The notes beneath the pieces were generated by a model that had not been told where the DNA came from, made no database searches, and saw nothing but the letters and a program-made list of their open reading frames with translations. This document shows positions 317-11,313 of a stretch of 11,597 nucleotides of DNA, piece by piece. Position numbers and translations under genes: made by a program. This stretch comes from a virus, in UHGV virus genome UHGV-0331195. One strand, given 5' to 3'. Each line of letters begins with the position of its first letter. Position 1 is the first letter of the stretch.

Positions 317-347
317 ACCCTGTTTTTTCGTGTGGAATCATAGACAT

Positions 348-1589
348 ATGGCGAGAAAAACACACCCATTAACCACAGTGCAGATCAAAGCAGCCAGACC
401 AGCGCAAAAGGAGTACACCCTGCAGGACGGCGGAGGGCTTTTTCTCCTGGTCAAACCGTCTGGATCAAAACTCTGGAGATTTTCCTACTACCGACCATCG
501 GACAAAAAAAGAATATTGCTGAGTTTTGGATCGCTTGAAGATGTTTCCCTGGCTGATGCCAGAAAACGCCGTAGCGAGTACAGGACGTTAATCAGTGCCG
601 GAACTGACCCGCAGGACCACGAGAGGCAAAAAAGAGAGACAGAGGCCCGAAGACAAGGGAACACGTTCGAAAATGTGGCGGCGGCATGGTACCAGGTGAA
701 AATCAGCCAGAATCTGGCCCCCAACACGATTAAAGACATCTGGCGTTCGCTGGATAAATATGTATTCCCGTTCATCGGCAACACGCCAATAGATACCCTC
801 ACCGCCCGAAGGTTCGTTGAAGTGCTTACCCCCATCAAGGAGCGCGGCAACCTGGAAACACTCAAGCGGGTTTTACAGCGCGTTAATGAGGTAATGGATT
901 ACGCCGCCAACAGTGGGCTGATTGATGCCAATCCGGCTATGAATGTGCGTAAGGCGTTTCCCTCACCTGTAAAAAAACATATGCCAACAATCCGCCCCGA
1001 ACAGCTGCCGGAGCTTATGCAGGCTTTATCAGTATCGGCAACAGAACGGCAGACCAGATTACTGATTGAATGGCAGTTACTGACCGTAACCCGTCCCGCC
1101 GAAGCGTCATCAACGCGGTGGGATGAAATCAACCTGGACGCGAAGCAATGGACGATACCTGCCGGACGCATGAAGATGCGCAGGGATCACGTTATCCCGC
1201 TTTCCGGTCAGGCTATGGCGGTGCTGGAGGCCATGAAACCAATCAGCCACCACCGCAATTACGTTTTCCCAAGTCTGAAAGACCCACAGCAGCCGATGAA
1301 CAGCCAGACAGCTAACGCAGCATTGCGGCGTATGGGATTCGCTGGCGTGCTGGTGTCTCATGGATTACGCGCCATATTCAGCACAGCAGCGAACGAGGAA
1401 GGATTCGAGCCGGACGTAATAGAGGCGGCACTTGCCCACGTCGACACCAACGAAGTTAGACGGGCATACAACCGGAGCAACTATATAGAAAAACGCATCG
1501 TGCTGATGCGCTGGTGGGGCGAATTTGTCGAGGCTGCGGCGACGGGCGTAACCCTCGCCAGTGGTAAAAGGGGTATCCGAGCCGTGTAG
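348..1589 (+). CDS. int: Tyrosine-type site-specific integrase, P4/CP4-57 family
   Basis: ORF 330-1589; start chosen at ATG 348 (MARKTHPLT...). N-terminus (PLTTVQIKAARP...YTLQDGGGLFLLVKPSGSKLWRFSYY) matches the arm-binding domain signature I recall for P4-type integrases; C-terminus has HGLR and RAYNRSNY catalytic-region motifs. Adjacent to a tRNA. Confidence 0.85.
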   Translation: MARKTHPLTTVQIKAARPAQKEYTLQDGGGLFLLVKPSGSKLWRFSYYRPSDKKRILLSFGSLEDVSLADARKRRSEYRTLISAGTDPQDHERQKRETEARRQGNTFENVAAAWYQVKISQNLAPNTIKDIWRSLDKYVFPFIGNTPIDTLTARRFVEVLTPIKERGNLETLKRVLQRVNEVMDYAANSGLIDANPAMNVRKAFPSPVKKHMPTIRPEQLPELMQALSVSATERQTRLLIEWQLLTVTRPAEASSTRWDEINLDAKQWTIPAGRMKMRRDHVIPLSGQAMAVLEAMKPISHHRNYVFPSLKDPQQPMNSQTANAALRRMGFAGVLVSHGLRAIFSTAANEEGFEPDVIEAALAHVDTNEVRRAYNRSNYIEKRIVLMRWWGEFVEAAATGVTLASGKRGIRAV

Positions 1590-2952: not shown

Positions 2953-3045
2953 CCTTTATTAAGGTAATCGATGAAAAGACAAAGCCCCGCAAGTGTCGTT
3001 ACCACTCGCAGGGCTTCTAACCAACAACGTAAACTAGGAGCCGTT

Positions 3046-3603
3046 ATGGTTGCTGTAAATCATATACCACACCTTGTACACACACAAACGGCCTTTGTGT
3101 GGCGTTTTCTGGCCCTGAATATCGGAGAAAAAAACCGCTTGATCGCCACCAGCAAAAATGGCTATGATTCCCGCGCACCTCATAAAACGGGTGTCGGGAT
3201 TAGCCTCCTGAAAACAACTGAAGCGCACAGCACGCGCCCCGCGTGTTTTTTTGTGCCGCATAGTCACACCTTATCAATGGTGGGCTGTACGGGGGCGGAG
3301 CAATCCGCGCCGGTTTCTTCAGTGTCCGGTAAGGCTAACCCTGTACAGTCCGCCACCAGCGAAATTAGCCTTTTGCGTGGCGGTTATCTTAACCACACTG
3401 AGGAGGCTGCCAACATGGCTACTATCCCTACCCTTGTACATTCTCAAACCGCATTTATCTGGCGCTTTATCATCTTTGGCGCGTCAGAATCTCAAATCAT
3501 CCACGTAACCGCCTGGACGGAACGCGAAGCGCGTAGCCGTTGCCCGTCCGGTTGTATTGCGGTATTCGCCGCCCGTATTCGTCAGGGGGTGTGCCATGCC
3601 TGA
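3046..3603 (+). CDS. Icd-like (host cell-division inhibitor family) ORF with in-frame tandem duplication; start uncertain (2971, 3046 or 3415)
   Basis: Single frame 2971-3603 with no stop. AGGAG RBS before ATG 3046. N-terminal motif LVHTQTAFVWRF recurs as LVHSQTAFIWRF at the second copy; degenerate TEAHSTRPAC versus TEREARSRCP. Confidence 0.4.
   Translation: MVAVNHIPHLVHTQTAFVWRFLALNIGEKNRLIATSKNGYDSRAPHKTGVGISLLKTTEAHSTRPACFFVPHSHTLSMVGCTGAEQSAPVSSVSGKANPVQSATSEISLLRGGYLNHTEEAANMATIPTLVHSQTAFIWRFIIFGASESQIIHVTAWTEREARSRCPSGCIAVFAARIRQGVCHA
3415..3603 (+). CDS. Icd-like protein, second and better conserved copy, 62 aa
   Basis: Strong SD GAGGAGG (3400-3406) before ATG 3415. MATIPTLVHSQTAFIWRFIIFGAS...TEREARSRCP...FAARIRQGVCHA fits my recollection of Icd-like small proteins in P4-like/PICI elements. 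Confidence 0.5.
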   Translation: MATIPTLVHSQTAFIWRFIIFGASESQIIHVTAWTEREARSRCPSGCIAVFAARIRQGVCHA

Positions 3604-3922: not shown

Positions 3923-4222
3923 ATGAGAACGTATTTATCTGGCTTTACTGCCAGCGGCCCCGCTCGGCCTGAAATCCGCCCCGGAGATATTTTCAGAGAT
4001 AACTACGGTGGCGTTGTTGAGATTAAAGGCGTGGCAGAACGGCGCATTACCTACCGCCGTGAAGGCTACGAATATGATTGCGTGATGCCTGTTTATCAGT
4101 TCCGGCGTGATTTTTCTCTGGTACAGGCAGCGCCCCGCAGTAAACCAACCAGCAGGGAGAAAGCACGCGCCAATATTCAGGAAATAAGAAAGATGTTGAA
4201 TGTATTCAGGGGTAAAAAATGA
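3923..4222 (+). CDS. Small protein, possible DUF4222 family
   Basis: 99 aa; PGDIFRDNYGGVVEIKGVAERRITYRREGYEYDC resembles the DUF4222 pattern I recall from P4-like prophages. Stop overlaps the primase start (ATGA). Confidence 0.45.
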   Translation: MRTYLSGFTASGPARPEIRPGDIFRDNYGGVVEIKGVAERRITYRREGYEYDCVMPVYQFRRDFSLVQAAPRSKPTSREKARANIQEIRKMLNVFRGKK

Positions 4223-5967
4223 AACTGGCACCGAACGTAAAAAAACAGCCACGCGGAATAAAACACAAAGACACAGAGGTAATTATCTTTGCGGGTAGTG
4301 ATGCCTGGTCACACGCGGAACAATGGCAGGAGCAGGATGGCCCCGCATCCGGCGATAATGTGCCGCCTGTGTGGCTTGGGCCAAATCAGCTTGCCGAACT
4401 TGATGCACTGAAAATTGTTCCGGATGGAAAAAAACGCGTAAGGCTGTACCAGGCCGGAGAACTGGATTTGGTGGAGACCAAAAAGATTGGTCAGAAGCTG
4501 GCGGCGGCAGATATTCAGGACGCAAATTTTTACCCCGAAGGAATGCACGTCCAGAAGTGTGAAAACTGGCGGCGCTATCTGAATGCTGAGCGTGAAAATA
4601 TTGCCGCAGGGCTTACCATGCCGGAGCAGAAAAATACGCAACTGGCACAAATGGCAGACAGTGAGCGCGCGCAGCTGCTTGCCGAGCGCTTTGATGGCGT
4701 TTGTGTACATCCGGAAAGTGAAATCGTTCACGTATGGCGCGGCGGGGTATGGTGTCCGATCAGCACAATGGAGCTGAGCCGCGAAATGGTGGCGATCTAT
4801 TCAGAGCACAGGGCCACTTTCAGCAAACGCGTGATCAATAACGCCGTTGAAGCGTTAAAAGTTATTGCCGAACCAATGGGGGAGCCGTCCGGCGATTTGC
4901 TGCCGTTCGCCAATGGTGCGCTTGACCTGAAAACGGGGGAATTTTCCCCGCACACGCCGGAGAACTGGATCACCACGCACAACGGCATTGAGTACACGCC
5001 ACCAGCACCTGGGGAGAACATCCGCGATAACGCGCCAAACTTTCATAAATGGCTTGATCACGCAGCCGGAAAAGACCAGCGCAAGATGATGCGTATATGT
5101 GCCGCGCTGTACATGATTATGGCGAACCGGTACGACTGGCAGATGTTTATTGAGGCCACCGGAGACGGCGGGAGCGGTAAAAGTACATTCACACACATCG
5201 CCAGCCTTCTGGCAGGGAAACAGAACACGGTAAGCGCTGAAATGACATCGCTTGATGATGCTGGTGGACGTGCGCAGGTTGTCGGGAGTCGTCTTATCGT
5301 CCTGGCTGACCAGACGAAATATACAGGCGAAGGAACGGGCATCAAGAAAATCACGGGCGGCGACCCCGTGGAAATTAACCCGAAATACGAAAAGCGTTTC
5401 ACGGCTGTAATCAGGGCGGTGGTGCTGGCGACCAACAATAACCCGATGATATTCACCGAACGGGCCGGAGGTGTGGCACGTCGTCGCGTGATTTTCCGCT
5501 TCGACAATATCGTCAGTGAGGCCGAAAAAGACAGGGAGCTACCGGAAAAGATTGCGGCTGAAATCCCTGTCATTATCCGCCGATTGCTGGCGAACTTTAC
5601 CGACCCTGAGAAGGCACGGGCTTTACTACTGGAACAGCGTGACGGTGATGAAGCACTGGCAATAAAGCAACAGACGGATCCGGTTATTGAGTTTTGCCAG
5701 TTCCTGAATTTTCTGGAGGAAGCGCGCGGCCTGATGATGGGTGGCGGTGGCGATTCAGTGAAGTACACGACCAGAAACAGCCTTTACCGCGTCTATCTGG
5801 CGTTTATGGCATACGCAGGCAGGAGCAAACCGCTAAACGTAAATGACTTTGGCAAGGCTATGAAGCCAGCCGCGAAAGTTTACGGACATGAATATATTAC
5901 GCGGAAAGTTAAGGGAGTAACGCAGACTAACGCAATAACAACAGACGATTGCGACGCGTTTTTATAA
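4219..5967 (+). CDS. Replication protein: P4-alpha-like primase / SF3 helicase
   Basis: 582 aa; Walker A GDGGSGKST (aa 315-323, nt 5161-5187) and Walker B-like RLIVLAD, consistent with the phage/plasmid primase P4-family C-terminal domain. Followed by an iteron origin. Confidence 0.75.
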   Translation: MKLAPNVKKQPRGIKHKDTEVIIFAGSDAWSHAEQWQEQDGPASGDNVPPVWLGPNQLAELDALKIVPDGKKRVRLYQAGELDLVETKKIGQKLAAADIQDANFYPEGMHVQKCENWRRYLNAERENIAAGLTMPEQKNTQLAQMADSERAQLLAERFDGVCVHPESEIVHVWRGGVWCPISTMELSREMVAIYSEHRATFSKRVINNAVEALKVIAEPMGEPSGDLLPFANGALDLKTGEFSPHTPENWITTHNGIEYTPPAPGENIRDNAPNFHKWLDHAAGKDQRKMMRICAALYMIMANRYDWQMFIEATGDGGSGKSTFTHIASLLAGKQNTVSAEMTSLDDAGGRAQVVGSRLIVLADQTKYTGEGTGIKKITGGDPVEINPKYEKRFTAVIRAVVLATNNNPMIFTERAGGVARRRVIFRFDNIVSEAEKDRELPEKIAAEIPVIIRRLLANFTDPEKARALLLEQRDGDEALAIKQQTDPVIEFCQFLNFLEEARGLMMGGGGDSVKYTTRNSLYRVYLAFMAYAGRSKPLNVNDFGKAMKPAAKVYGHEYITRKVKGVTQTNAITTDDCDAFL

Positions 5968-5982
5968 TTTTTTGCAATGGCT

Positions 5983-6207
5983 GTCTACCCTGTCTACCTG
6001 AGTAAAGAAAAATACATTTAATTCAGTATATTAACTTAGGTAGACAGCCTTTTTTCACTGTCTACCTACTATCTACCCTCTCTACCTGATTTTACCTGAA
6101 TCAGACAGGGAGGTAGATACGGGGTAGATAGTGGATAAAAGCACTCTACCCCGCTGAAAGCCGCGCCATTACTGGCATGAGAGCCAGTAAGGTAGATAAG
6201 GTAGACA
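5983..6207. repeat. Origin of replication: iteron cluster with at least 12 copies of (T)GTCTACC / GGTAGA(C/T)A in both orientations around an AT-rich spacer (6001-6038)
   Basis: Direct copies at 5983-5990, 5991-5998, 6059-6066, 6071-6077, 6082-6088, 6144-6150; inverted copies at 6039-6046, 6113-6120, 6123-6130, 6191-6198, 6200-6207. Resembles P4 ori/crr octamer iterons bound by alpha. Confidence 0.7.
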
Positions 6208-6255
6208 AGGGGAGGCACAACTCAAAACTTTTTAAACGAGGGGGTAAAAATAAAA

Positions 6256-6519
6256 ATGCGCACATCAGGAAAACTTAATAATCAGAAGAAGCAGCATAAC
6301 CGCGCCATTGACCTTACAGAGCACTGGCTGAGAGTGGCGATAAAAATCATCGACCGCAACACGGGGGAAGGATACGCGAAAGCACATCCCGAACTGATAA
6401 GCGCATTCATGACCACGGCGGCGGCAAACTTTGCCACGCTGACAGAACGGGAGATTGCCGAAGCGGAACAGGTAACAACCATCAACGTAAAAACCGGAGA
6501 GTCAGGCGATGATACATGA
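6256..6519 (+). CDS. Hypothetical protein, 87 aa
   Basis: ORF with GAGGGGG upstream; stop overlaps the next gene's start. Confidence 0.45.
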   Translation: MRTSGKLNNQKKQHNRAIDLTEHWLRVAIKIIDRNTGEGYAKAHPELISAFMTTAAANFATLTEREIAEAEQVTTINVKTGESGDDT

Positions 6520-6781
6520 CCGCATAGCGGAGGAACTCGAGGCGAAAGGATTTTACCGGAGGGCGGCGGCGCGATGGGGTGAAGTCATGCAGCTGGTGGA
6601 GACAGACAAGGAACGGCATCAGGTTACGATGCGACGGCTGGAATGTTCCAGGAAGGCACAGAGGCCACCGGAGCCGCCGGATAACTTCGGAGACCTGAGA
6701 AAGGCAGTCGATCGCACTTATGCTGAAATGGGTATAGATGGTGTAAGCGATGAAATATGGCGTAATTACCCAGGCAGCTAA
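6509..6781 (+). CDS. PerC-like transcriptional regulator (tentative)
   Basis: 90 aa; N-terminus IAEELEAKGFYRRAAARWGEVM resembles the PerC-family signature as I recall it. Translationally coupled to the upstream ORF. Confidence 0.45.
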   Translation: MIHDRIAEELEAKGFYRRAAARWGEVMQLVETDKERHQVTMRRLECSRKAQRPPEPPDNFGDLRKAVDRTYAEMGIDGVSDEIWRNYPGS

Positions 6782-7021: not shown

Positions 7022-7228
7022 ATGGCTGAAGAGAAAAAAGGCGGTGTTTCGGTGTACATAAGCCCCGACATCGTGAAGGCGCTCAAGGAACGCCACCAGC
7101 AGAACGTAAAAGCAGGCATTGCGGCAGGACTTGATCCGCTGGCGATGGTTGAGCCGTCAACAGGCTGGCAGGTACGCGCCTATTTACGCGCGGCGCTGGG
7201 TATGAATCAGGTTCACGGGGGTGAATAA
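7022..7228 (+). CDS. Small hypothetical protein, first gene of head operon
   Basis: 68 aa, RBS AAGAGGAA, stop overlaps the capsid gene start (TAATG). No similarity to lambda gpW, which has the same length, that I can see. Confidence 0.5.
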   Translation: MAEEKKGGVSVYISPDIVKALKERHQQNVKAGIAAGLDPLAMVEPSTGWQVRAYLRAALGMNQVHGGE

Positions 7229-8283
7229 TGACAGTAAAAGCAATAGCACTTAACACTAACCAGCTTTTTGCGTACCTGAATCGCGAGGATATTGCGGAAT
7301 TTAAATTCAGTCCGCTGTTTACCGCGCTGTTTTTCCCGAACGTGGCGACATTCAACACACAGGACATCATGTTAGATAACCTGGATATTGAAGAAGTCAC
7401 TATGTCGGCGTTTTGTTCGCCTATGGTGGGTAGCCAGGTTCAGCGCGATAAAGGGTACGAAACAAGCATTATTCGCCCTGGCTACACGAAGCCAAAACAC
7501 GAAATCGATCCATTAAAAACAATAATGCGCATGGCTGGAGAAGATCCAGCACAGCTTAACGACCCTACCTACCGCCGTATGCGCCTGATTACTGGCAACA
7601 TGCGCCGCCAGATAAACGCCATTAAAGCGCGCGTGGAATGGCTGGCGGTAAATGCGGTAACGACCGGAAAAAACATCATTGAGGGCGAAGGCATAGAGCG
7701 CTATGAAATCGACTGGAAGATACCGGAAAAAAACATCATAGAGCAGGCCGACGGTAAAAAATGGTCAGAGCAGGACAAAGACATACACGACCCAATCTAT
7801 GACATTGAGCTATACGCAGATCAGGCAGGTTGCCCCGCAAACGTCATGATTATGGGCGTTGATGTATGGCGCATGTTACGCAGCTTTAAAAAATTCCGTG
7901 AACTGTACGATCTCTCCCGTGGTTCAGAATCCGCCGCAGAGCTGGCATGTAAAAACCTGGGCGAAGTGGTGAGCTTTAAAGGCTATCTTGGTGATCTGGC
8001 CCTTATCGTCTATTCCGGCAAATACACTGACAGCGACGGCACAGAAAAATATTTCCTTGAGCCTGATTTGCTGGTCCTGGGCAACACCAACAATAAAGGG
8101 CTGGTGGCCTATGGTGCGATTATGGAACAGGAAGCGGTAAGAACGGGCGCAACGCAAAACATGTTTTACCCGAAAAACTGGATTGAGGACGGCGATCCGG
8201 CGATTGAGTACGTGCAGACGCACAGCGCACCGCAGCCGGTTCCGGCAGATATTCGCAAATTTGTTACCGTCAAAATTGGTTAA
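7228..8283 (+). CDS. Major capsid protein, phage lambda gpE family (divergent)
   Basis: 351 aa. Shares with recalled lambda gpE: FKF(S/D)PLF...LFF, (T/R)PGY(V/T)KPKHE, EDP..L.DP.YRR.R.I..NMR, WS..DK...DP..DIE.YA, RSFK, RGS.S, LG..VS(F/Y)KG..GD.A.(I/V)VYSG.Y, LVLGNT...GL..YG, .YPKNW...GDPA.E, SAP. Estimated 35-45% identity. Confidence 0.85.
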   Translation: MTVKAIALNTNQLFAYLNREDIAEFKFSPLFTALFFPNVATFNTQDIMLDNLDIEEVTMSAFCSPMVGSQVQRDKGYETSIIRPGYTKPKHEIDPLKTIMRMAGEDPAQLNDPTYRRMRLITGNMRRQINAIKARVEWLAVNAVTTGKNIIEGEGIERYEIDWKIPEKNIIEQADGKKWSEQDKDIHDPIYDIELYADQAGCPANVMIMGVDVWRMLRSFKKFRELYDLSRGSESAAELACKNLGEVVSFKGYLGDLALIVYSGKYTDSDGTEKYFLEPDLLVLGNTNNKGLVAYGAIMEQEAVRTGATQNMFYPKNWIEDGDPAIEYVQTHSAPQPVPADIRKFVTVKIG

Positions 8284-8295
8284 CGGGGGGATTCT

Positions 8296-8631
8296 ATGGA
8301 CACTCCATACATTGAGTTATTTGCAGGCAGTCAGCAGGTATCCACGACGCTGGTACATTTTGCCGCTGATGCTGGCGTTATTCAGGAATTTACCCCGCTG
8401 ATGCTGGCGGACAATGGCGAGTTTAAGCCGTGGGATGGTCAGGAATCTGGCAAGGCTGTTTATCTGACTTCGTACCCCGTGGACACGTCAAAGCAGAAAT
8501 CAGCACAGTGTTACAAGACGGGGATATTTAATATCGCCGCCGTAAACTGGCCTGAGAGCGCCGACACTGACGCGAAAAAATGCGCCGCCTTTGCGGGTTC
8601 TGGCGTATCCGTTCAGCCGCTGGCGCGATAA
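8296..8631 (+). CDS. Head decoration protein, lambda gpD family (divergent)
   Basis: 111 aa; TPLMLADNGEFKPWDG...YKTGIFN...VNWPESADTDAKKCAAFAG...SV parallels recalled gpD (TPLMLD...WDG...YKSGTF...VLWPEA..DETKKRTAFAG...SI). Gene order E then D is the reverse of lambda. Confidence 0.7.
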   Translation: MDTPYIELFAGSQQVSTTLVHFAADAGVIQEFTPLMLADNGEFKPWDGQESGKAVYLTSYPVDTSKQKSAQCYKTGIFNIAAVNWPESADTDAKKCAAFAGSGVSVQPLAR

Positions 8632-9263: not shown

Positions 9264-9806
9264 ATGAAATCTCATCTGATGAACAAAAAAAACATGGCGA
9301 AAAGCTGCCGTGTAAGTGCGACAGCGTTCGACAAGTGGGGAGTAACTCCCGTTGAGCGTAAAGGCCGTGAGGCGTTTTATGATGTTGCCAGCGTGATAGA
9401 AAATAGGGTTAACAATGCAATTAGCCAGCTTATAAACGACAAAGGCGAGATTGACGATGATGAACTTTTACGAGTCAGGATCAGATTACTGACAGCACAG
9501 GCAGAGGCGCAGGAACTTAAAAACGATCGCGATCGCGGTGACGTGATTGATACTGAGTTTTGCCTGTACGCGCTTTCAAAGCTGGCGAGTCAGATTTCAT
9601 CAATCATGGACAGCCTCCCGCTTACTATGCAAAGGAGCTTCCCACAGATTACCCCCGCCATGCTGGATAGGCTTAAAAGGGAAGTGGTTAAAGCCTGTAA
9701 TGCCAGTGCCAGAGTTGCCGACAACCTCCCACAGATACTGGCTGATTACTTGAAAGAAACAACCGGAAACGTACCGGAAAAGTTGCTACAGAAGAAAGGC
9801 GAGTAA
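9264..9806 (+). CDS. Terminase small subunit, lambda gpNu1 family; start uncertain (9264, 9279 or 9294)
   Basis: C-terminal two-thirds LLTAQAEAQELKNDRDRGDVIDTEFCLYALSKLASQISSIMDSLPLTMQRSFPQI...LDRLKREVVKACN closely parallels recalled Nu1 (LTRAQADAQELKNARDSAEVVETAFCTFVLSRIAGEIASILDGLPLSVQRRFPEL...FLKRDIIKAMN). N-terminal DNA-binding region is much more divergent. Confidence 0.8.
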   Translation: MKSHLMNKKNMAKSCRVSATAFDKWGVTPVERKGREAFYDVASVIENRVNNAISQLINDKGEIDDDELLRVRIRLLTAQAEAQELKNDRDRGDVIDTEFCLYALSKLASQISSIMDSLPLTMQRSFPQITPAMLDRLKREVVKACNASARVADNLPQILADYLKETTGNVPEKLLQKKGE

Positions 9807-11146: not shown

Positions 11147-11290
11147 CAGGCGTAAATCCCGATATGGTGATCCCCATATCGGGGAACATCCACCAGCTTA
11201 AAAACGAATGAGCGAAAAAAATCCAGGTAGAATTATGGAAGTCGCTAGGGCAATCGCCGTTTAAATTGTGTATTTTTTCAGCAAATTATT

Positions 11291-11313
11291 TTAGTTATAC
11301 GTTTGGTTATACG
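11291..11313. repeat. Integrase arm-type sites near attR: TTAGTTATACG (11291-11301) and TTGGTTATACG (11303-11313)
   Basis: Same 11-mer as at 262-284, about 60 bp from the attR core. Confidence 0.55.

Follow-up and report, generated by a model that had tools for sequence, protein, structure and literature searches.

A TCTACC iteron array directly downstream of rep in an Escherichia coli phage-inducible chromosomal island: a near-identical copy of the EcCICFT073 origin with a layout resembling P4 ori

A cluster of short repeats lying directly behind an initiator gene raises the question of whether it is the origin on which that initiator acts and, if so, whether such an origin is already known. 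The locus considered here lies in the virus genome UHGV-0331195, of which the whole stretch analysed, 11,597 bp in length, is referred to as the window. A sequence-only reading had placed an iteron origin in it, immediately downstream of a primase/helicase gene. The genes and domains that frame the locus are as follows.

63-139, tRNA-Pro
330-1589, plus strand, tyrosine integrase
2971-3603, plus strand, Ash-like gene
3923-4222, plus strand, DUF4222 gene (Pfam DUF4222); its stop overlaps the rep start
4219-5967, plus strand, rep, replication initiator of 582 aa (Pfam D5_N, DUF5906, Pox_D5; TIGR01613)
5674-5940, plus strand, coding region of the C-terminal origin-binding domain (residues 486-574), the putative reader of TCTACC iterons
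6256-6519, plus strand, first gene 3' of the putative origin, 87 aa, phrog_1231, unknown function; right-hand boundary of the intergenic region
6509-6781, plus strand, PerC
7228-8283, plus strand, lambda-type capsid E homologue
8296-8631, plus strand, decoration-protein homologue
9264-9806, plus strand, Nu1-like small terminase subunit

The plus strand carries all the main genes of the window, and two copies of a 16-bp direct repeat (candidate att repeats), at 260 and 11289, enclose ~11 kb. The whole window is 99.7% identical to the island of E. coli NCTC9112 located between yejM/tRNA-Pro and yejO, in the annotation of which a helix-turn-helix regulator and a decoration protein are present. 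Judged by its gene set, the window is a Gram-negative phage-inducible chromosomal island (PICI), that is, an E. coli phage satellite of ~11 kb beside tRNA-Pro.

The gene next to the repeats follows a DUF4222 gene, and this DUF4222-rep pair was present in every related island examined (CFT073, IAI39, BH100, APEC, RM10466, iso30821, ATCC 25922 and NCTC9112). In Rep, an N-terminal part with no assigned function (residues 1-140) precedes D5_N and the superfamily-3 helicase core (141-485) and the C-terminal origin-binding domain (486-574). Over 432 aa, residues 141-571 share 41% identity with residues 326-756 of P4 alpha (E=3e-113); the SaPI5 PriRep5 helicase (PDB 7OLA, E=1e-14) is matched by residues 186-430 and the solved P4 origin-binding domain (1KA8, residues 2-89, E=1e-6) by residues 486-574. 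Of the designation 'primase/helicase', the helicase part is thus borne out by the identity to P4 alpha and the 7OLA match, whereas the primase part is not: no primase domain was detected in Rep with Pfam or NCBIfam, or with PDB for residues 1-149, and the alignment with alpha begins at its residue 326. Residues 1-149 gave no Pfam match at E-values up to 10 and none in the PDB sequence search, and the only matches of residues 1-140 were to a PHROG family without assigned function and to the first part of the 'DNA primase' PHROG profile. A single-sequence AlphaFold2 model of the N-terminus, unreliable at a pLDDT of 52, displayed alternating strand and helix. RefSeq names Rep a 'DNA primase family protein' on the basis of TIGR01613, a model covering the helicase region.

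Another important question is what the repeated unit is and how often it occurs. Thirteen copies of TCTACC/GGTAGA were found in the 11,597-bp window, where 2.8 are expected from shuffles, and this number was reached in none of 200 shuffles. Eleven of them lie within 5984-6205 in both orientations; the other two, at 11226 and 11533, are isolated, and no second cluster was found anywhere in the window. The first position of the array is 15 bp past the rep stop codon (5967), so that the array does stand immediately 3' of the 4219-5967 gene, as had been read from the sequence. The core positions are as follows.

5984, 5993, 6061, 6072, 6081 and 6145, plus strand, TCTACC cores
6039, 6112, 6123, 6191 and 6200, minus strand, TCTACC cores

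The same reading had counted at least twelve copies of an octamer. The presence of both orientations stands, but the count is lower, with 11 solid copies and one or two decayed ones, and the unit is shorter. The octamer of the window is TGTCTACC or TATCTACC, and TRTCTACC is exact in nine of the 11 copies, the exceptions being TCTCTACC (6079-6086) and ACTCTACC (6143-6150). A twelfth iteron position at ~6100-6108 is decayed in the window and is occupied by a true copy in two relatives (L081 and L087), and GTGGATAA at 6131-6138 may be another decayed iteron copy. Since the two bases preceding the hexamer vary freely among relatives (TG, TA, TC, AC, CC, CA, CT and CG), the conserved and selected unit is the hexamer TCTACC rather than the octamer. 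Neither TGTTCA nor TGAACA occurs in the intergenic array of the window, which thus lacks the P4 type-1 iteron TGTTCACC. The only candidate DnaA box, TTATCCACT (the reverse complement of 6130-6138, with eight of nine consensus positions matching), was rejected; it does not extend beyond the window/CFT073 lineage and may itself be a decayed iteron.

The arrangement of the cores and of the elements between and beside them is given below.

5982-6207, whole iteron array, the probable origin: 11 TCTACC cores as two inverted units about dyad centre 6094/6095
5982-6086, plus strand, left unit with the P4-ori layout: cores 5984(+), 5993(+), spacer, 6039(-), 6061(+), 6072(+), 6081(+)
5999-6038, AT-rich 40-bp spacer (17% GC), putative DNA-unwinding element
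6112-6207, minus strand, right unit, mirror image of the left one by inverted repeats I1 and I2 and the mirror map: cores 6112(-), 6123(-), 6145(+), spacer, 6191(-), 6200(-)
6151-6190, GC-rich 40-bp spacer of the right unit (57% GC), mirror partner of 5999-6038, containing block A
6157-6175, block A, AAAGCCGCGCCATTACTGG, inside the GC-rich spacer of the right unit
6224-6237, block B, AAAACTTTTTAAAC, an AAAA[C/G]TTTT tract after the outer inverted iteron pair

The dyad is near-perfect, since 10 of the 11 cores have a mirror partner across 6094/6095 that is exact to the base, and the array occupies the entire gap of 288 bp between rep and the next gene. Core-to-core intervals in the left unit are 9, 46, 22, 11 and 9 bp. 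The right unit is collinear among the E. coli variants, Serratia, L085 and L087. The two spacers differ in duplex stability: the least stable 40-mer of the whole window is 6003-6042 (nearest-neighbour dG of -40.3 vs. a window mean of -55.0, sd 4.3), and spacer 6151-6190 is above the window average. An AT-rich segment reported at 6001-6038 is therefore real (5999-6038, 17% GC), but it does not divide the array centrally, since two cores lie to its left and nine to its right and the centre of symmetry is at 6094/6095. Relatives differ in the sequence of 5999-6038 but keep it AT-rich, with 11-22% GC in P4, Serratia and Morganella.

To what extent does this layout repeat that of P4? In the P4 record (NC_001609), 'ori type 1 repeats' and crr ('cis required region for replication') are annotated, and we read ori on the alpha-coding strand. 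P4 ori consists of two copies of TGTTCACC, a 37-bp spacer (22% GC), one inverted copy and three direct copies, at intervals of 10, 44, 21, 11 and 10. The resemblance to P4 ori with a different repeat, noted in the sequence-only reading, is thus upheld: the left half of the window array fits the order + + [AT spacer] - + + + within ~2 bp per interval, and the right mirror unit is extra. Moreover, alpha is homologous to Rep over the helicase and origin-binding domains, the iterons of both systems are short and in both orientations, and an iteron region (crr, with the same type-1 repeats) lies immediately 3' of alpha, the position that the array holds relative to rep. The differences are also clear. 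In P4, ori and crr are separate, ~4.5 kb apart, whereas the window has one compact locus of two inverted units; alpha has an N-terminal primase domain (~325 aa), in place of which Rep has an unrelated 140-aa domain; the iteron core is another one (TGTTCACC vs. TGTCTACC), the binding domains being only ~31% identical; and the type-2 repeats of P4 are absent from the window. The right half was also considered as a literal copy of P4 crr and rejected as such; the iteron orientations after the spacer differ, and the analogy is functional only.

The closest known system is, however, not P4. Although P4 was a correct parallel as far as layout is concerned, region 5900-6300 is 97.8% identical over 401 bp to E. 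coli CFT073, with all 11 cores in the same position and orientation. As in EcCICFT073, the array lies directly 3' of the same rep gene, with the DUF4222 gene before rep, and the few point differences are outside the cores. The roxA-phoQ island of CFT073 carries capsid and decoration genes, consistent with EcCICFT073, of which c1499 and c1500 are those genes. The host islands are different: that of the window lies between yejM and yejO (tRNA-Pro) and EcCICFT073 between roxA and phoQ, and the window island has another integrase, no SSB gene and a Nu1-like small terminase gene.

For EcCICFT073, the origin has been placed in the stretch that directly follows the initiator gene (Fillol-Salom et al. 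2018, ISME J 12:2114, PMC6092414). Its iterons are mapped in Fig. 2a of that work, and the window cores flanking the AT spacer match the description in the legend (PMC6092414). A temperature-sensitive plasmid with EcCICFT073 rep-ori was maintained at the restrictive temperature, whereas plasmids with rep or ori mutants were not, or much less so (PMC6092414, Fig. 2b); ori deletion 'significantly reduced' colony numbers, and abolition is not stated (PMC6092414). The array of the window is therefore a near-identical copy of a published and functionally tested origin, which makes the origin already known. With function tested on the 97.8% identical CFT073 copy, we regard the array as very probably the vegetative replication origin of an EcCICFT073-type PICI. 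The central proposal of the sequence-only reading, an iteron origin beside its initiator gene, is thus supported by the P4 alpha homology, the P4-ori layout and the conservation in homologues described below.

A search of 5,426 complete E. coli genomes found matches to region 5900-6300 in 523, without exception on the chromosome. Islands of three kinds share the rep-ori module, namely, a classical PICI (CFT073), the IAI39 island, in which a full capsid, portal and terminase set is accompanied by a 100% identical origin, and the tRNA-Pro island of the window. Identity of the intergenic DNA to the window ranges from 73 to 100% across nine islands of E. coli and Shigella, in which cores shift by at most 1-3 bp and spacers change. 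A broader survey covered 89 loci encoding a Rep homologue, from IMG/VR, E. coli, Shigella, Serratia and Morganella; the breadth was given by the IMG/VR scan, the scan of species-representative genomes having yielded only three loci, and a phage database search returned no match to the origin. Absence of iterons from homologues had been named in advance as the outcome that would speak against an origin, and this outcome did not occur: at least nine TCTACC cores were present within 290 bp after the rep stop in 79 of the 89 loci. Across 56 distinct arrays, identity to the window was 88.5% in core columns and 62% in the other array columns (Mann-Whitney p=2e-16, a value inflated by sequence relatedness), and the stronger conservation of cores than of spacers is also visible by eye in the alignment. 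An iteron cluster was absent within 300-600 bp of rep in five of the 89 loci; in the four of these inspected individually (L084, L088, L089 and L091), a terminator lies near rep in place of the iterons. In L079, the left unit alone directly follows rep. By this comparison, the adjacency of rep and array is common, not universal.

These data raise a further question: is the iteron sequence matched to the protein that would read it? The loci that bear on it are listed below, with the identity of their Rep to that of the window.

Serratia aquatilis (L010), Rep 53% identity, core TGTTCAC, same 11-iteron two-unit layout with one AT-rich and one GC-rich spacer
Morganella morganii (L011), Rep 52% identity, core TGTTCAT, same general layout with both spacers AT-rich
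L085 and L086, Rep 58% identity, core TGTTCA, two units in swapped order
L090, Rep 57% identity, core TGTATACC, unit in opposite orientation relative to rep
L079, L081 and L087, Rep 59-64% identity, core TCTACC, C-terminal domain of the window's type

The C-terminal domains of the E. coli TCTACC islands are 85-99% identical to one another and ~31% identical to those of P4, Serratia and Morganella, the iterons of which are TGTTCA(C/T). Core-to-core intervals are 10, 44, 20, 11 and 10 in Serratia and 9, 43, 20, 11 and 10 in Morganella. The layout recurs around a different core in P4 ori, Serratia, Morganella, L085 and L090. The differences among the three octamers TGTCTACC, TGTTCACC and TGTATACC are confined to the central two bases. 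That the iteron core tracks the class of the binding domain supports, at the level of sequence, a cognate initiator-iteron pairing. Of the earlier suggestion of an island-specific initiator-origin pair, the pairing is consequently retained, iteron class matching binding-domain class, but the island specificity is not, the same module being found in islands that do not share their integrase, insertion site or packaging genes.

Conservation is not restricted to the iterons. Block A was found with at most four mismatches in 71 of the 82 TCTACC-type loci (600 bp after rep searched), and it also occurs in the TGTTCA-type loci L085 and L086 with two mismatches. Such retention across iteron classes suggests that block A is constrained by something besides iteron reading. 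The AAAA[C/G]TTTT tract of block B is invariant in all seven sequences of alignment A4, which spans iteron classes, and in P4 crr, A8CT6 and A8T6 stand at the relative place of block B. In L085, block B precedes another iteron unit and no gene, and it is therefore not simply a translation-start signal. Both blocks are thus, in the alignments, conserved beyond what the iterons explain. A hairpin at 6168-6189 (TTACTGGC/GCCAGTAA) is unlikely to have a structural role because its right arm is not conserved among relatives, only the left part (block A) being kept. A 10-bp repeat, CCGCGCCATT, at 6161 and 6300 was judged to be due to chance.

How might such an origin work? In SaPI origins, which lie immediately 3' of rep, an AT-rich region is flanked by penta- or hexanucleotide iterons, 6-12 in number, with two or more on either side and the two groups opposing each other; in SaPI Rep, a winged-helix C-terminal domain reads the hexamer iterons, the AT-rich centre is melted independently of ATP, and the hexameric helicase loads itself (PMC9371898). 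An arrangement of this type is seen in the window, where two plus cores lie to the left of the spacer, a minus core immediately to its right, and the outer pairs 5984/5993(+) and 6191/6200(-) oppose each other. Both systems have a superfamily-3 helicase initiator with a C-terminal winged-helix domain, and the helicase cores are homologous (7OLA, E=1e-14), but the host phylum and the iteron sequences are different, with no detectable sequence similarity outside the helicase core; furthermore, SaPIs have a recognisable separate or fused primase, whereas none is recognisable in Rep of the window. In classical iteron plasmids (pPS10, RK2, R6K, F and P1 types), direct repeats of typically 17-22 bp are bound by RepA-type proteins, which recruit host DnaA and DnaB. 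Repeated initiator sites beside an AT-rich unwinding element and cognate initiator-iteron pairing are common to these origins and the window, but the repeats of the window are 6-8 bp long and in both orientations, and a helicase serves as its initiator.

By analogy with P4 alpha and the SaPI Reps, the C-terminal domains of Rep would bind the TCTACC iterons after induction by a helper phage and excision of the island; sites 9-11 bp apart have helical-repeat spacing and lie on one face of the helix. Rep would then melt the AT-rich spacer 5999-6038 and load itself as one or two hexameric helicases with no separate loader, and theta-type replication would proceed. The dyad would suit the loading of two opposed hexamers; since only one spacer is easily melted, initiation may be asymmetric. 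Because the primase domain of P4 alpha is missing, priming probably comes from the host primase or the N-terminal domain of Rep, which is a guess.

A refinement of this explanation divides the locus in two. The left unit (5982-6086, with the AT spacer) would be the origin proper, and the right unit (6112-6237, with the GC-rich spacer and blocks A and B) a crr-like cis helper that binds Rep, and perhaps another factor, and stimulates or orients initiation without itself being melted. P4 crr is immediately 3' of alpha, shares its type-1 repeats with ori and closes with an A8CT6 tract comparable to block B; however, the outer iteron pair is bordered by A/T tracts in every unit, P4 ori included, which makes block B weak evidence for a crr identity, and the right unit mirrors the iteron layout of the left one exactly, unlike the layout of crr. 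The solitary left unit directly after rep in L079 and the opposite order of the units in L085 would make the two units separable modules, and the conservation of block A across iteron classes agrees with a separate task for the right unit. In the window, as in Serratia, only one spacer melts easily, but both are AT-rich in Morganella, and the SaPI iterons on both sides of the melting region are consistent with two-hexamer loading (PMC9371898). On balance, we consider this division of the locus possible but rather unlikely.

Could the array instead control transcription? Rep or another island protein would then regulate read-through from rep into the genes from 6256 onwards, with replication secondary or absent. 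The space from rep to the next gene is taken up entirely by the array, and our scan found neither an intrinsic terminator after rep nor a sigma-70-like plus-strand promoter, so that transcription probably reads through and bound Rep could be a roadblock; on the minus strand, the same scan returned a single weak promoter-like site and a single terminator-like site inside the next gene, a yield not exceeding that of shuffles. This reading is nevertheless improbable: the EcCICFT073 copy supports replication (PMC6092414), the layout equals that of the annotated P4 ori, the units of L085 are not beside a gene start, the least stable duplex of the window is inside the array, and the protein encoded beside the array, a helicase that has an origin-binding domain, is no classical repressor. 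A search for an RNA element with Rfam at permissive E-values on both strands returned only miRNA-precursor models at 18-29 bits (gathering scores, 76-150), an artefact of the dyad symmetry. Finally, the readings of the array as a cluster due to chance or without function, as a site of packaging (cos/pac) or as one of recombination, for which nothing specific speaks beyond the fact that satellites carry helper cos sites somewhere (PMC6092414), are effectively refuted by the conservation and the published functional test, as well as by the copy number never reached in 200 shuffles, cores conserved position by position across 73-100% identical DNA and an integrase and candidate att repeats that lie at the island ends, not at the array.

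The reading of the array as the origin of an EcCICFT073-type PICI leads back to its relation with P4. In 2018, it was stated that no other known replicon has the EcCICFT073 origin organisation (PMC6092414); by the comparison of iteron order and intervals, contrary to this statement, the layout is one common to P4 ori. Tentatively, and with less confidence than doubt, we suggest that the PICI origin and P4 ori/crr go back to a single ancestral unit, composed of an A/T tract, a pair of iterons and a spacer of 35-40 bp followed by inverted and direct iterons, which PICIs would have as two adjacent inverted units and P4 in split form as ori and a distant crr. In the same proposal, specificity would be set by the central dinucleotide (CT, TC or AT) of the octamer TGTNNACC together with the binding-domain class, and AAAGCCGCGCCATTACTGG and AAAA[C/G]TTTT would bind a further factor that makes initiation asymmetric. 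If true, a common ancestral unit would weaken the use of the origin layout in PMC6092414 as evidence for a shared ancestry of Gram-positive and Gram-negative PICIs.

As a discovery, the locus is of little value, the origin of this satellite family having already been drawn and functionally tested and the window copy being a near-duplicate. Its value for annotation is greater in practice: in 523 complete E. coli genomes, RefSeq has no annotation in the 288-bp gap, and it calls the initiator 'DNA primase family protein' although it has no detectable primase domain. The residual novelty is, from the sequences compared, comparative and consists of the P4-ori layout and an iteron core that tracks the binding-domain class. 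Together with the separable units, these features are of modest evolutionary interest, since they tie the Gram-negative PICI replicon closer to the P4 alpha lineage than PMC6092414 allowed. Moreover, they offer a natural initiator-iteron set (TCTACC, TGTTCAC and TGTATACC) for studying the change of specificity in winged-helix origin binders.

The right unit of the iteron array has a GC-rich spacer, which contains a block that is not an iteron itself; further elements of the rep-ori module and the island ends are listed with it by window position.

63-139: tRNA-Pro (GGG), at the left end
260-275 and 11289-11304: exact direct repeat of 16 bp, TTTTAGTTATACGTTT, whose two copies are candidate cores of the island's attL and attR
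4219-4638: Rep N-terminal domain, residues 1-140
6130-6138: AGTGGATAA, whose reverse complement TTATCCACT matches 8/9 of the DnaA-box consensus
6157-6175: non-iteron block AAAGCCGCGCCATTACTGG, within the right unit's GC-rich spacer
6224-6237: AAAA[C/G]TTTT tract, 3' of the outer inverted iteron pair

The AAAGCCGCGCCATTACTGG block is retained in 71 of the 82 loci with TCTACC-type iterons (up to 4 mismatches allowed); L085 and L086, whose arrays are TGTTCA-type, also retain it, differing at 2 positions. Since it is common to both iteron classes, it must be constrained by something other than iteron recognition. The succession of an outer inverted iteron pair and an AAAA[C/G]TTTT tract was likewise found in all iteron classes examined (the window, Serratia aquatilis L010, Morganella morganii L011, L085 and L087), and in L085 the tract is located away from any gene start. 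The cis required region for replication (crr) of satellite phage P4 carries A8CT6 or A8T6 in the matching relative position (L008, about 4340-4300 and 4480-4460). The tract may bend the DNA, bind a host factor or serve in priming.

Another question is whether AGTGGATAA represents a DnaA site. It is confined to the window/CFT073/ATCC 25922 lineage, and in relatives its position is occupied by a third inverted iteron; it is probably the remnant of an iteron and not a DnaA site. The P4 crr ends in a perfect TGTGGATAA.

The origin layout itself varies among relatives: L079 possesses the left, P4-ori-like unit alone, the order of the two units is swapped in L085, and L090 carries the iteron TGTATACC in the opposite orientation. 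In L005 (RM10466) and L006 (iso30821), 82-99 bp past the rep stop, a minus-strand iteron at offset 82 replaces the plus-strand iteron at offset 94, and the octamer prefix is always CC, CA or CT, never TG or TA; despite these differing prefixes, the Rep C-terminal domains of both are 96-97% identical to that of the window. Four loci encoding Rep homologues of 57-59% identity (L084, L088, L089 and L091) have a terminator downstream and no iterons within 300 bp of rep, so their origin must be elsewhere.

At the other end of Rep, residues 1-140 take the place of the primase domain of P4 alpha. Searches of this region against Pfam, NCBIfam and PDB gave no match; its sole hit is the PHROG family phrog_2850 (unknown function), and a low-confidence structure model predicts strand/helix alternation. 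RefSeq calls Rep a "DNA primase family protein", a name with no recognisable primase domain behind it.

The two TTTTAGTTATACGTTT copies enclose ~11 kb, including the integrase; the chance expectation for such matches is about 1e-4. The rep-ori module is 98-100% identical across the islands of IAI39 (L001), CFT073 (L002) and NCTC9112 (L092), while their integrases and insertion sites (roxA-phoQ versus tRNA-Pro/yejM-yejO) and their packaging modules differ. The IAI39 island resembles capsid-forming PICIs (capsid, protease, portal, connectors, HNH and both terminase subunits), whereas the packaging genes of the CFT073 and window islands comprise capsid and decoration homologues only. A single-stranded-DNA-binding protein gene lies between the small post-origin gene and perC in CFT073 (within the region L002 7357-8280), IAI39 and most relatives; the corresponding window region, 6256-6781, lacks it, and there the small gene, the 87-aa ORF, directly overlaps perC. 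A near-identical rep-ori module accompanied by differing integrases, sites and packaging genes indicates that these satellites evidently exchange modules.
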